Shown here: positions 23,175 through 58,305 of the stretch, piece by piece
Numbering within the stretch: position 1 is the stretch's first letter
Layout: the number at the start of each line of letters is the position of its first letter
Source of the DNA: Candidatus Levybacteria bacterium RIFCSPHIGHO2_01_FULL_37_17
Lineage (GTDB): Bacteria > Patescibacteriota > Microgenomatia > Levybacterales > UBA12049
Direction of reading: 5' to 3'
Assembly: GCA_001782035.1 (NCBI GenBank)
Contig: MFNL01000001.1
Location: 2,643 to 66,642 of the forward strand
Length of the DNA: 64,000 nt
Program-made: the position numbers and the translations under genes
Notes under the pieces: model-generated
Seen by the model: the letters and a program-made list of their open reading frames with translations, nothing else
Told to the model about the DNA's origin: nothing
Database searches by the model: none

Positions 23175-25034
23175 TTATATAAATACCTTGGCATAAGCAG
23201 CTTTTTTGGGGCCGATAAGTTTTTCAAATTCTTCTGATTCAATTGTCTCTTTTTTAAGCAGTTCCTCAGCTAGCACATCTAGCTTTCTTCTTAGCTTCTT
23301 AAGAACGTTTGAAGCTTTAATGTATGCCTCGTCAGTTATCTTTTTCACCTGCTTATCAATTTTTGCCGACATATCAGGAGAAATATTTGCACTTTCATAA
23401 GGCATTCGCCTATTCTCCCCATCCAGATTAATCGGGCCTAGTTCGCTCATTCCATATTGCACTACCATTGTTCGTGCAACTTCTGTAGCTTTTGCAATAT
23501 CATCAGATGCCCCGGTAGTTAATTCTTTAAACACTAGATTTTCTGCTGCTCTTCCTCCAAGCATTACGGCTATTTCTTCCATTAAATGCGTTTTTGTCTC
23601 ATGAACCCTGTCTATTGGTTCCATCATCGTGTGTCCCAAGCTCATTCCTCTGCTTACGATTGAAATCCTGTGAATTGGGTCCATGTTAGGCATAAACCAA
23701 GAAACAAGTGCGTGTCCTGCTTCATGATAGGCTGTCATTTTTCTGTCCTGGTCTGACTGAAGTCTTTTTTTCTCAGGCCCAAGTTTTACTTTTGTTGCCG
23801 CTTCTTCCAAGTCCTTCATATCTATATTTTTCTTGCCAAGCCTTGCCGCCAAAATTGCAGACTCGTTTAGCATGTTTTCCAAATCAGCTCCAGAAAATCC
23901 CACTGTTCTTTTTGCAACCCGTATCCAATCAACGCCTTTTTCAAAAGGCTTACCTCGTGCGTGGATTTTAAGAATAGCCTCTCTTCCGATAACATCCGGC
24001 AGCTCAAGCATTACGGTCCTATCAAACCTTCCCGGCCTAACTAAAGCAGGATCTAAAACATCAGGCCTGTTTGTTGCGGCCATAACAACCAGCTGCTCAT
24101 TTGGAGTGAATCCGTCCATTTCAACAAGAATTTGATTTAAGGTCTGCTCTCTTTCATCGTGTCCACCCATAAAACCCGCACCACGTTGCCTTCCAATTGC
24201 ATCAATTTCGTCAATAAATATAATTGCCGGTTGGGCTTTTTTAGCATTATTAAATAAGTCTCGAACACGGGAAGCACCAACGCCAACTAGCATTTCCATA
24301 AACTCGGATCCTGCCATAGAAAAAAATGCAACTCCAGCCTCGCCTGCAGTTGCTCTTGCAAGAAGCGTTTTGCCCGTTCCTGCAGGTCCAATCATGAGTA
24401 CCCCTTTTGGAGTTCTTGCTCCCATTGCCTTATACTTGCCCGGGTTTTTAAGAAAGTCTACAACCTCTGTTAACTCCTGCTTTGCTTCATCTACCCCTGC
24501 GACATCTCTAAAGCTAACTTTTGGTGTATCTTTGCTATACAGCTTTGCAGATGATTTCCCAAAAGAAAAGATTGACTCCTGCGCACCTCTTGCCTGTCTG
24601 AAGATAAACCAGAAAAACGCAACCATTAATACAATTGGTAAAATCCCAGTTAAAATATTTATCCAGTTATTTAGACTTGTTTCATCTTTTACCACAACTT
24701 TTGTTTTTCCTAAAGAAACGTTTGCATCTTTAAAAAGTTGATAAACGCTTGCATTAGTCTCTTTAAAGCTCTCAAGTATTTGGTCTTTTTGTTTTGCGAT
24801 TATTTTGTTTGGGTAAACTTCAATGGAGTTTACTTTTCCGCTCTTTACATCTGAAATTATGGTTGAAAGCGGAACGGTTTTGCTTTGTTCGGAAGTTCCG
24901 GTTCCACTAGGCTGAGTTATGCCAAAGAAAAGAAATGCGGTAAAGAGAATCAAGAATGCGTAGATTAAAATATTTTTCCACGACCATTTTATTTTTATAT
25001 TCTTAAGTCTTTTGGGCCTTTTTAAGGTTGGCAT
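23175..25034 (-). CDS. ftsH: ATP-dependent zinc metalloprotease FtsH
   Basis: N-terminal TM pair, [13 protein letters not shown] Walker A, second region of homology, HEAGHA zinc motif. Confidence 0.9.
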
Positions 25035-33005: not shown

Positions 33006-33006
33006 G

Positions 33007-33078
33007 TGCTCCCGCTTGGATTCGAACCAAGGACATCTACTTTATAAGAGTAGCGCTCTACCACTGAGCTACAGGAGC
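33007..33078 (-). tRNA. tRNA-Ile (anticodon UAU)
   Basis: Acceptor GCTCCTG/CGGGAGC, D-arm GCTCAGTGGTAGAGC, anticodon stem CTACT/AGTAG with loop CTTATAA, T-arm CTTGGTTCGAATCCAAG. Confidence 0.7.
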
Positions 33079-37879: not shown

Positions 37880-38010
37880 AACTCCTCGTTCCCGAGAAGC
37901 TTAATAATTTCCTGGTCCCGGGAACTGCATAAGGTGGTTTTCCGACTTTACGGTAGCGGCACTGTGGAGGAATTACACCTCGCTTACCCTTTCCTTATTG
38001 ATACTTTTAT
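37880..38010 (-). promoter_or_regulatory. cobalamin (AdoCbl) riboswitch-like leader
   Basis: Minus-strand RNA reads AGGGUAAGC...GGUGUAAUUCC...CCGCUACCGUAA...AGUCGGAAAACCACC, matching GGUGnAAnUCC, the B12 box (CCGCCACUGUAA, 10/12) and AGYCAGGAGACC. Followed by GUUCCCG/CGGGAAC hairpin abutting the SD. Confidence 0.5.
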
Positions 38011-56014: not shown

Positions 56015-56446
56015 ATGAAAATAATAAATAGAAAAGCGTTTTTTGAATACGAAATTCTTGAAACGTTCGAGGCTGGAATTAATTTATTCGGAAATGAGGT
56101 AAAATCTGTTCGTCTTGGCAAAGCAGATTTGGCCGGCTCTTTTGTTAAAGTTATTGGTTCAGAAATATATTTGATAAATGCCAAAATTTGGGAGTATCAA
56201 CCGGGGCAAATAGAAGGATACGATGAAAGAAGGACAAGAAAACTTTTACTGCATAAAAAACAAATTATTTCCTTAAAAAGCAAGGCCGAAGGCTCGAACT
56301 TGAATTTAGTTCCAATATCAATGTATTTAAAAAACGGCTTTATAAAAGTCGAGGTTGGGTTAGGAAAAGGCAAGAAAAAGTATGAGAAGAGACAGGCTTT
56401 AAAAAGGAAAGATTTACAAAGGGATTTGGAACGCGAACTGGGTTAG
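56015..56446 (+). CDS. smpB: SsrA-binding protein
   Basis: MKIINRKAFFEYEILETFEAGINLFGNEVKS canonical SmpB; C-terminal basic tail. Confidence 0.9.
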   Translation: MKIINRKAFFEYEILETFEAGINLFGNEVKSVRLGKADLAGSFVKVIGSEIYLINAKIWEYQPGQIEGYDERRTRKLLLHKKQIISLKSKAEGSNLNLVPISMYLKNGFIKVEVGLGKGKKKYEKRQALKRKDLQRDLERELG

Positions 56447-56730
56447 GCTTTGACTTTATTGGTAAGAGAAAAGAACGCTATTGCAAAGACAGCAAAAAGA
56501 GAAGCAAAAAACATATTCCCTAAAGCATTTGTAATTTGCCCTAAGCCATTAACTAAAACTCCGGACAATCCTCCAAAAACAGAAAAGAGAGCTACTATTA
56601 AGATGAATTTTCTTGTGGGTATATTCTTTAGCTTTTTCCAGTATCTTTTAACAAAATATGCAATCAAAGATCCAATTATTATAAATCCTAAAATGTTTCC
56701 AAATGAAAAAATTAAATATAGCCAATTCAT
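56443..56730 (-). CDS. small membrane protein
   Basis: 95 aa, three hydrophobic helices; preferred over the overlapping plus-strand ORF on composition. Confidence 0.4.
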   Translation of the reverse strand: MNWLYLIFSFGNILGFIIIGSLIAYFVKRYWKKLKNIPTRKFILIVALFSVFGGLSGVLVNGLGQITNALGNMFFASLFAVFAIAFFSLTNKVKA

Positions 56731-56774
56731 TGCCTAGTTAATAAACGCAAAAAATGAAAATTAGTAATAAAAAA

Positions 56775-56800
56775 CCCCGCATTTAGCAGGGTTTTATTTG
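56775..56800 (-). terminator. rho-independent terminator following tmRNA
   Basis: Minus strand AAAACCCUGCUAAAUGCGGGGUUUUUUAUU: GC stem plus U tract immediately after tmRNA 3' end. Confidence 0.5.
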
Positions 56801-57163
56801 TGGAGATGTCGGGAAGTGATCCCGAGTCCAAGAAGGTATTTTTTCAAACTTCTACAAGCTTATTTTGTTATTTTTTTGATCGCCTTATTCTTTGAAAACA
56901 AACATCCATAAATAAGGTCAAGGTTATAAATTCAAAAGAGTTCTAACCATCTACTCTTTCAATTTCTCGACTAAGTTTATGCCCAAAATGTTTCATCGAG
57001 AAAAAACATTAAGGACAGCTCAACTAGTTAAGCAAAAGCAAAACGAGTTGGAGCGAATGAAGAGTTTCCTCTATCATTTATATTTTTGACTTAGTTTTAC
57101 GACTGTGAGTCTCGTCGGCTTGCAGTTTTTAAAGAACTATCTTGTCGATGCATTTGCATCCCC
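56801..57163 (-). ncRNA. ssrA: tmRNA (ssrA), standard one-piece
   Basis: 5' GGGGATG pairs with 3' CATCTCC (G3:U wobble) + discriminator A; T-arm-like CGGGATCACTTCCCG. Internal tag frame ...NDRGNSSFAPTRFAFA-TAA (stop at 57028-57030). Lies 350 nt from smpB. Confidence 0.7.
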
Positions 57164-57172
57164 AATGAGCGA

Positions 57173-57201
57173 ATTCTATCATACTGATGCTCTAAAGTCA
57201 A
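57173..57201 (-). promoter_or_regulatory. putative tmRNA promoter (TTGACT-17-TAGAAT)
   Basis: Minus strand -35 TTGACT (57196-57201), 17-nt spacer, -10 TAGAAT (57173-57178), ~10 nt before tmRNA G1. Confidence 0.4.
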
Positions 57202-57218
57202 CAACAACGTCCTATAGC

Positions 57219-57247
57219 TTGACAATTCCCATACGAAGGGCTATAAT
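57219..57247 (+). promoter_or_regulatory. consensus sigma70-type promoter TTGACA-17-TATAAT driving a leaderless transcript
   Basis: TTGACA 57219-57224, 17-nt spacer, TATAAT 57242-57247; ATG at 57256 is 9 nt after the -10, no SD. Confidence 0.5.
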
Positions 57248-57255
57248 CTTTGCTC

Positions 57256-58305
57256 ATGGATATTGAAAGACAAGGTGTAATCTCACGCGTTAGAAATGCT
57301 GTAGAAAGCAGGGTTAATCCCAATTGGGAAACCGAGCAAGTTTGGCGAGATTATTTCCATAAGTCAAGATCAATTAGAGAACTCGAAGCAATAGTTACTG
57401 ATCCTCAAAAAGATCCAGTACACCAGCAAAGAGCATTAGATATTCTACTTGCCCCTGATGTAAATTCACTTGCCTTTCATGCTAATCTTGAATTTTCAAC
57501 AAGTCCAGTTCGCTTAATTAACCACGAATTTATTACCTCTCTTACAGACACACAGGCAGAGTATGCAGCCGCGATTGTTTCTGGAAATATCAATAGGTTT
57601 AGAAGGCAGTCCACATCTGAAGATCGCAACAGAGCATATGAAGCAAGACAAAGAATCGAGGACTATAACCATGTAATTCTTTCGCTTCTCCCAAAGTTGC
57701 CTCCAACGCAAGCAGATAAATTGTTTAGTGATTATATAATGATTGATGAAACGCTCTCGGATGAAAGCTTCCATAAATACGAGCCTGTAGAGTTACTTTT
57801 GCGAGTCGTTGACTTACCCTCAAAATATAGACTTCGAGCAATCAACTGGATGCACTCAAGAGCCGAGGATCTTAGAATAGAGGGAAAAGAGAAAGAATTA
57901 CAAGGCTTCTTAAATAGTTATGAAAGGCTATTAGATAGTATCTCTTTCACAGACGATTTGCCAATTCCGCAAGAGGCATTTGAAAACGAAGTGTCTTATT
58001 TACTTGGAACTTTTGACAGAAGCTTTTCTGATGGTTGGAATACGCATTACATCTTAAAGCATCTTGGTAGAGATGTAAAACATGCTTTGGTAAGAAGAAT
58101 TATATTAAACGGTGGAAACTTACATGATGAGAAATCTCTAGTAAAAGAGTTCGAAGAAGACCAAGAACTTGTCGAAGCCATACAAACAAAACTAACCGAG
58201 CAAGAGGCTAGAAATCGTTCCTGGGCAGAGCGACAAAGACAGGAACAAGAGACAGAGGCAGCTATTCTTCAGCGAATGAACAAAAAAGAACCCTCTGCAA
58301 GCTAA
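57256..58305 (+). CDS. hypothetical protein (349 aa), probably leaderless
   Basis: ATG 57256 (the track starts at TTG 57250). Helical, Arg/Glu-rich C-terminus; no family recognised. Confidence 0.4.
   Translation: MDIERQGVISRVRNAVESRVNPNWETEQVWRDYFHKSRSIRELEAIVTDPQKDPVHQQRALDILLAPDVNSLAFHANLEFSTSPVRLINHEFITSLTDTQAEYAAAIVSGNINRFRRQSTSEDRNRAYEARQRIEDYNHVILSLLPKLPPTQADKLFSDYIMIDETLSDESFHKYEPVELLLRVVDLPSKYRLRAINWMHSRAEDLRIEGKEKELQGFLNSYERLLDSISFTDDLPIPQEAFENEVSYLLGTFDRSFSDGWNTHYILKHLGRDVKHALVRRIILNGGNLHDEKSLVKEFEEDQELVEAIQTKLTEQEARNRSWAERQRQEQETEAAILQRMNKKEPSAS

Follow-up and report, generated by a model that had tools for sequence, protein, structure and literature searches.

The closest described counterpart of the gene reported here is that for the SsrA (10Sa) RNA of Escherichia coli. 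This RNA has a 7-bp acceptor stem with a G3:U70 pair and A73, a T-arm, a long helix P2, a first pseudoknot (PK1), a tag reading frame with its stop codon in the loop of P5, three further pseudoknots (PK2–PK4), and the smpB product as its partner; each of these features has its like in the present locus. In E. coli, the frame of the tag is set by UAGUC before the resume codon, with U85 (position −5) and A86 (position −4) highly conserved (Miller et al. 2008, PMC2481249), and the U(−5)A(−4) context is also common to both RNAs. The differences concern the tag itself, which is (A)DRGNSSFAPTRFAFA here and (A)ANDENYALAA in E. coli; the resume codon, GAU (Asp) rather than GCA; the T-loop, AUCACUU as against UUCAACU or UUCGAUU in standard tmRNA; the D-loop, with one G instead of GG; and the 3′ CCA, which is not encoded.

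The tags of Mollicutes offer a second comparison. In Mycoplasma pneumoniae and Mycoplasma genitalium, these have an end of the A-F/Y-A-F-A type, with AFA replacing LAA (review by Himeno et al., PMC3985003), and the tag of Mesoplasma florum, AANKNEENTNEVPTFMLNAGQANYAFA, comprises 27 residues and ends in ...ANYAFA (PMC9097571). The M. pneumoniae tag also has 27 residues, and in this species tagged proteins are degraded mainly by Lon (PMC8403727). The tag encoded at the present locus shares this type of C-terminus (...RFAFA). In contrast to its 15 encoded residues, the Mollicutes tags have 27, with determinants for Lon in their interior, and the genomes that encode them lack ClpXP.

The window considered here is the whole stretch of 64,000 nucleotides (64 kb) that was analysed. 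We put the probability at roughly 96% that the locus is the functional ssrA gene of Candidatus Levybacteria (CPR/Patescibacteria), encoding a standard one-piece tmRNA whose partner is the product of the adjacent smpB gene. As a housekeeping gene it is ordinary, and its product is a standard RF00023 RNA from an uncultured groundwater lineage; the mycoplasma-like end of its tag and its atypical T-loop are mild lineage traits, of modest specialist interest.

The ssrA gene, its signals and its relatives

The window contains a single tmRNA match, to Rfam RF00023, at 56798..57163 on the minus strand, with 109.2 bits (gathering score 47) and an E-value of 9.4e-42. The match spans model positions 1–374 of 374. 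The gene and its immediate surroundings comprise the following features.

56015..56446, plus strand: smpB, coding for the protein that partners tmRNA; convergent with ssrA (Pfam PF01668, E 1.5e-49)
56443..56730, minus strand: 95-residue predicted membrane ORF in the interval from smpB to ssrA, immediately downstream of the terminator of ssrA
56771..56795, minus strand: intrinsic terminator, 10-bp stem followed by a T-run (pattern scan)
56798..57163, minus strand: ssrA, one-piece tmRNA, 366 nt as matched (RF00023; 56800..57163 by ARAGORN -ps)
57173..57201, minus strand: sigma-70-type promoter TTGACT-17-TAGAAT, with a TG extension before the −10 element (pattern scan)
57219..58305, plus strand: 351-residue ORF between ssrA and a comF-like gene

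An earlier, sequence-only reading had placed a tmRNA on the minus strand near smpB, and this is borne out by the covariance model, by ARAGORN with relaxed thresholds, by comparative structure, and by synteny with smpB in 24 related genomes. Its limits for the gene, 56801..57163, run exactly from G1 to the discriminator A; the predicted mature RNA consists of these positions together with a CCA added post-transcriptionally. Two programs had been proposed as checks. The Rfam search returned the full-length match at 109.2 bits, and ARAGORN was negative at default settings and positive only with the threshold at 95% (-ps), a result taken up below.

The promoter and the downstream terminator had likewise been proposed from the letters, and were found independently by the pattern scan. 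G1 follows the −10 element at a distance of 9 nt, and the terminator begins 3 nt beyond position 56798, where the ssrA match ends. Promoter and terminator keep their positions in two relatives (L001 and L002), with changes in the terminator stem in L002. As to the partner gene, the encoded SmpB passes both NCBIfam equivalog cut-offs (171.3 bits vs 130, and 165.7 vs 119.1).

Relatives were sought by comparing SmpB with species-representative genomes, which assigned the window to Candidatus Levybacteria/Levyibacteriota. Of the 27 loci closest to it, 24 have a full-length tmRNA no more than a few hundred bases past smpB; the remaining three (L003, L015 and L024) gave no tmRNA match, and their sequences stop within about 1.5 kb downstream of smpB. 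The best SmpB match, 90% identical, is on contig MFNK01000012.1 of Candidatus Levybacteria bacterium RIFCSPHIGHO2_01_FULL_36_15b (L001). Its ssrA RNA is about 92% identical to that of the window, and the two loci agree in T-loop, GAU resume codon and layout of promoter and terminator, as well as in the convergent arrangement with smpB and the 95-residue ORF; helices P2 and P4 are weaker in the window. Searching for exact copies of the SmpB protein led to three independent public records in which the locus is identical over 4,432 nt, including ssrA: MFOU01000007.1 (GCA_001782495.1), an ENA scaffold and a JGI contig.

Secondary structure and the tRNA-like domain

The complete structure was written out as P1, four segments of P2, PK1 (P3/P4), P5, PK2 (P6/P7), PK3 (P8/P9), PK4 (P10/P11) and the T stem. 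All standard helices and the four pseudoknots can form, and each of the 93 proposed pairs is Watson-Crick or G-U in the window sequence. In an alignment of 10 sequences, 88.3% of the cells pair, compared with 40–52% in controls slid by 1–3 columns, a percentage inflated by the derivation of the structure from one of the aligned sequences. Less affected by this are the counts of compensatory changes: 39 pairs have changes on both sides. None of 500 shuffles reached the observed pairing or covariation. Pairing is complete (100%) in P7, P10a, P11, P3 and the T stem, each of which has several covarying pairs.

57088..57117, minus strand: pseudoknot 1, P3 CGAC/GUCG and P4 GACU/AGUC (in 25 of 25 lineage tmRNAs, covarying)
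57018..57054, minus strand: P5 stem-loop, enclosing the 3′ part of the tag frame with its stop codon (partial comparative support, pairing in about 67% of cells; poorly aligned region)
56966..57017, minus strand: pseudoknot 2, P6a, P6b and P7 (P7 100% paired, 5 of 5 pairs covary)
56922..56959, minus strand: pseudoknot 3, P8 and P9 (86–90% of cells paired; 6 of 7 P8 pairs covary)
56864..56917, minus strand: pseudoknot 4, P10a, P10b and P11 (97–100% of cells paired; 11 covarying pairs)

In the MAFFT alignment, P4 appeared poorly conserved (36.8% paired). This was discarded as an artefact of register, as a search sequence by sequence finds P3 and P4 in all 25 tmRNAs. Across these, P4 has 4–7 bp, with covarying versions such as GACU/AGUC and UUGAUU/AAUCAA; that of the window has only 4 bp, compared with 5–7 bp in the relatives.

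The following elements belong to the tRNA-like domain.

57157..57163, minus strand: 5′ strand of the acceptor stem, GGGGAUG, with G3 of the alanine identity pair G3:U70 (sequence)
56801..56808, minus strand: 3′ strand of the acceptor stem, CAUCUCC (56808..56802), and discriminator A (56801) (sequence)
56809..56825, minus strand: T-arm, 5-bp stem UCGGG/CCCGA with the 7-nt loop AUCACUU (RF00023 alignment, sequence)

The pairing of GGGGAUG with CAUCUCC, including G3:U, the discriminator A that follows, and a tRNA-like T-arm (UCGGG-AUCACUU-CCCGA, 56825..56809) had all been pointed out in the sequence-only reading, and all are where it had put them. All seven positions of the acceptor stem pair and are invariant in 10 relatives, and three of the T-stem pairs covary in the 10-sequence alignment. 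Following the discriminator A, the DNA reads CAA (that is, ACAA and not ACCA).

The T-loop of tmRNA has been described in comparative work as 'highly conserved' (PMC1168896). Against the Rfam consensus UUCGAuU and the tRNA-type pattern UUCRAnn, the loop AUCACUU retains U55 and C56, whereas U54 and A58 are absent, the first position being A and the fifth C; the match to RF00023 is obtained all the same. This is the rule in the lineage, as the fifth base (the equivalent of A58) is C or U in 23 of 25 Levybacteria-like tmRNAs and the first base is variable, giving the general form NUCAYNN; exactly AUCACUU is also found in L001 and L006. The A equivalent to A58 is retained in nine of nine tmRNAs from other CPR bacteria. 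The D-loop contains one G (UGCAUCGAC or UGAUUCGAC), compared with GG in the consensus. Since the T- and D-loops of the lineage's tmRNAs are atypical while the T-loops of the window's own tRNAs are canonical, the comparison points to a remodelled elbow that would be specific to tmRNA in the Levybacteria-like lineage, a small variation within the family and no new kind of RNA.

Integrity of the gene and its neighbourhood

With default settings, ARAGORN reported eight tRNAs and no tmRNA in the whole window. When thresholds were lowered to 95% (-ps), it called ssrA at 56800..57163, with the tag DRGNSSFAPTRFAFA* and a 'p' flag; the flag is taken to mean a score below the default threshold, the window gene lying just under it. 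A gene that falls below this threshold, is flagged when found, and has a lower Rfam score than its closest relative (109 vs 125 bits in L001) might be suspected of being a decaying pseudogene, tmRNA-like but non-functional. We consider this very improbable. ARAGORN at default detects the tmRNAs of only seven of the 24 relatives, or seven of 25 with the window gene, missing 18 of 25, while Rfam detects 25 of 25; because most tmRNAs of the relatives are missed as well, the failure reflects the lineage and not damage to the window copy. The best explanation for the lower scores lies in additional P2 mismatches, several of which are flagged in the cmscan alignment, together with the shortest P4 of the set. 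These same features, and the non-canonical T-loop, could be counted as signs of decay, but the T-loop is shared with L001 and L006, and every helix is intact in the window copy. Relative to L001, 28 alignment columns differ and no helix is broken; two of the differences are fully compensatory U-A to C-G swaps, in P6b and P10a. The tag frame, its stop codon, the UAAAU context, the promoter and the terminator are likewise intact and conserved, and the window copy is the one beside smpB, as in the relatives. On the grounds of the compensatory swaps, the unbroken helices, and the conserved positions of promoter and terminator, the ssrA copy is thus judged to be intact and under structural selection.

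The odd T-loop was also considered as the cause of the ARAGORN miss, and rejected, as L001 has the same T-loop and is detected. The low sensitivity of ARAGORN is probably due to the remodelling of the tmRNA elbow in the lineage. Several of the tags that ARAGORN gave for relatives at relaxed thresholds (e.g. in L014 and L020) looked wrong, and were replaced by tags derived from the UAAAU|G context.

Genomic islands and prophages often integrate at tmRNA genes, and the 351-residue ORF, which has a perfect promoter of its own, lies at the 5′ end of ssrA and is absent from L001, where ssrA abuts comF, could be taken as a trace of a mobile element that carried or duplicated an ssrA copy or fragment. 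This is extremely improbable. Islands integrate at the 3′ end of ssrA, while this ORF lies on the 5′ side and has no PHROG match; moreover, ssrA is full length, no second ssrA 3′ end (att-like repeat) was found within the window, and the order smpB, 95-residue ORF, ssrA, comF-like gene is common to the window and L001. The idea of a chance tRNA-like or structured region with no tmRNA, which has only the ARAGORN default miss in its favour, is already refuted by the RF00023 match (E 9.4e-42 over the whole model), strong covariation, and orthologues beside smpB in 24 genomes.

Two ORFs flank ssrA. The 95-residue ORF has a counterpart in L001, with 61% identity over 92 residues, and has no match in Pfam or PHROGs and only one sub-threshold match in NCBIfam. 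Its strand is disputed between annotations: NCBI has 95 residues on the minus strand, and ENA and JGI have 92 residues on the plus strand. The conservation in L001 favours a reading on the minus strand. The 351-residue ORF, for which public gene callers choose the ATG at 57256 to give 349 residues, has no match in Pfam, NCBIfam or PHROGs. The promoter before it, TTGACA-17-TATAAT, is back to back with that of ssrA. The short distance of 8 nt from its −10 element to the ATG suggests that the mRNA is leaderless or nearly so.

The orientation of ssrA relative to smpB is variable. The gene is convergent with smpB (minus strand) in the window, L001, L002, L009, L013 and L021, and co-oriented (plus strand) in the other 19. 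As the orientation flips among close relatives, this implies repeated small inversions that would have affected ssrA alone.

Some further RNA elements were seen in the window. Between 59619 and 61630, some 2.5–4.5 kb from ssrA, there are four tRNA-Ser genes (anticodons GCU, UGA, GGA and CGA) and one for tRNA-Arg (GCG); many relatives have a similar tRNA-Ser/Arg cluster near smpB and ssrA. A tRNA-Ile with anticodon UAU is encoded at 33006..33078 on the minus strand (Rfam tRNA, 75.2 bits), and L014 also has tRNA-Ile(UAU). Such tRNAs are uncommon in bacteria, where AUA is mostly decoded by a lysidine-modified CAU tRNA. An AdoCbl-II (cobalamin) riboswitch aptamer (RF01689) lies at 37929..37998 on the minus strand, upstream of minus-strand genes (47.4 bits; gathering score 36.5).

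Tag frame, tag termini and candidate proteases

Two features define the reading frame for the tag.

57076..57080, minus strand: upstream UAAAU, with U(−5) and A(−4) as the equivalents of E. coli U85 and A86 (invariant in two alignments)
57028..57075, minus strand: tag frame GAU...GCU UAA, giving DRGNSSFAPTRFAFA and the stop codon (UAA 57030..57028, in the P5 loop) (ARAGORN -ps)

The internal frame AAC UCU UCA UUC GCU CCA ACU CGU UUU GCU UUU GCU UAA had been read correctly from the letters, and the position of the resume codon had been left for later. ARAGORN at 95% extends this frame upstream by three codons, GAU AGA GGA. The resume codon is thus GAU (Asp), 57075..57073, behind UAAAU, since UAAAU|G does not vary in either alignment and conforms to the U85/A86 rule; ARAGORN agrees on GAU, and the same resume call is obtained in L001. 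The encoded tag has 15 residues, and the appended tag, A-DRGNSSFAPTRFAFA, has 16 when the tmRNA-borne alanine is included. The tag of L001, DRGNSSFAQPRFAFA, differs in two residues (PT in the window, QP in L001).

GAU is common to the window and L001 only; among the other 21 relatives with resolved tags, 20 have GCU or GCA and one has GUC. On account of this restricted distribution, GAU is regarded as a recent single-base change.

As to the end of the tag, FAFA had been likened to Mollicutes-type tags rather than to the common ALAA. This holds for the last three to four residues, as judged from the literature, and fails for the length of the tag, with 15 encoded residues against 27; the likeness implies no phylogenetic relationship to Mollicutes. 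Nor is it peculiar to the window gene. Among 23 Levybacteria-like tags (rederived from the UAAAU|G context, with L019 and L020 left out), the termini are AFA in six, AYA in three and LAA in four, with single cases of others; AFA/AYA is therefore the commonest type (nine of 23) and normal for the lineage, and LAA and AFA/AYA tags coexist among close relatives. In the other CPR tmRNAs retrieved for comparison, the tags end in AYA, VYA, VMA or AVA.

Tag length also varies. The window's subgroup has short tags of 14–18 residues. Tags of about 30–37 residues occur in L006, L008, L010, L012, L014, L016, L018, L022, L023 and L027, and several of the relatives' long tags include a segment resembling an amphipathic helix, e.g. 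AKNSISALKAERDAILAELYGSRPALALAA.

The elements observed at the locus (the gene, its conserved structure, the transcription signals, the tag frame and the partner gene) would work together as in established trans-translation (reviewed in PMC3985003), and it is from this knowledge that we infer charging, tagging and the reading of the tag by a protease. ssrA would be transcribed from its own extended −10 promoter and transcription stopped at its own terminator. The ends would then be trimmed and CCA added, since the DNA has ACAA at this point and not ACCA, and AlaRS would charge the RNA with alanine by way of G3:U70 and A73. Together with SmpB and EF-Tu, the Ala-tmRNA would enter a ribosome that has stalled on a broken mRNA with its A site empty, and take over the nascent chain. 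SmpB and the upstream UAAAU would place GAU (57075..57073) in the A site for the switch of template; the ribosome would translate DRGNSSFAPTRFAFA, terminate at UAA and be freed, and A-DRGNSSFAPTRFAFA would mark the protein for an ATP-dependent protease.

A candidate for this last role is encoded in the window.

23175..25034, minus strand: FtsH protease gene, with Peptidase_M41, AAA and FtsH_ext domains (domain matches)

FtsH is the only ATP-dependent protease recognisable within the window. Signature motifs of ClpP, ClpX and Lon were found neither in the 64-kb window nor in 80 related loci, which amount to a small fraction of any genome. The literature searched yielded nothing specific on Clp or Lon in Patescibacteria/CPR, nor on the tmRNA tags of Microgenomates. 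It is conceivable, if on balance doubtful, that A-[F/Y]-A termini evolved independently in Levybacteria, and perhaps in CPR bacteria more widely, along with a switch of protease from ClpXP to Lon or FtsH in a genome-reduced lineage, and that the remodelled elbow (A58 absent and only one G in the D-loop) arose alongside. If this were true, Levybacteria would provide a natural series for following the co-evolution of tags and protease specificity, because LAA and AFA/AYA tags are mixed among close relatives.

For the annotation of the genome itself, the ssrA gene, the encoded tag and the resume codon are now settled. Two points bear on CPR bacteria in general. As 18 of the 25 lineage tmRNAs are missed at default settings, surveys of CPR genomes that use ARAGORN alone would wrongly score ssrA as missing; Rfam/Infernal detects all 25. 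Furthermore, endings other than ALAA (AFA, AYA, VYA, VMA and AVA) appear to be common in these bacteria. The textbook view of Mycoplasma as the sole exception to ALAA may thus have to be revised, and the specificity of proteases in these reduced genomes is worth examining.
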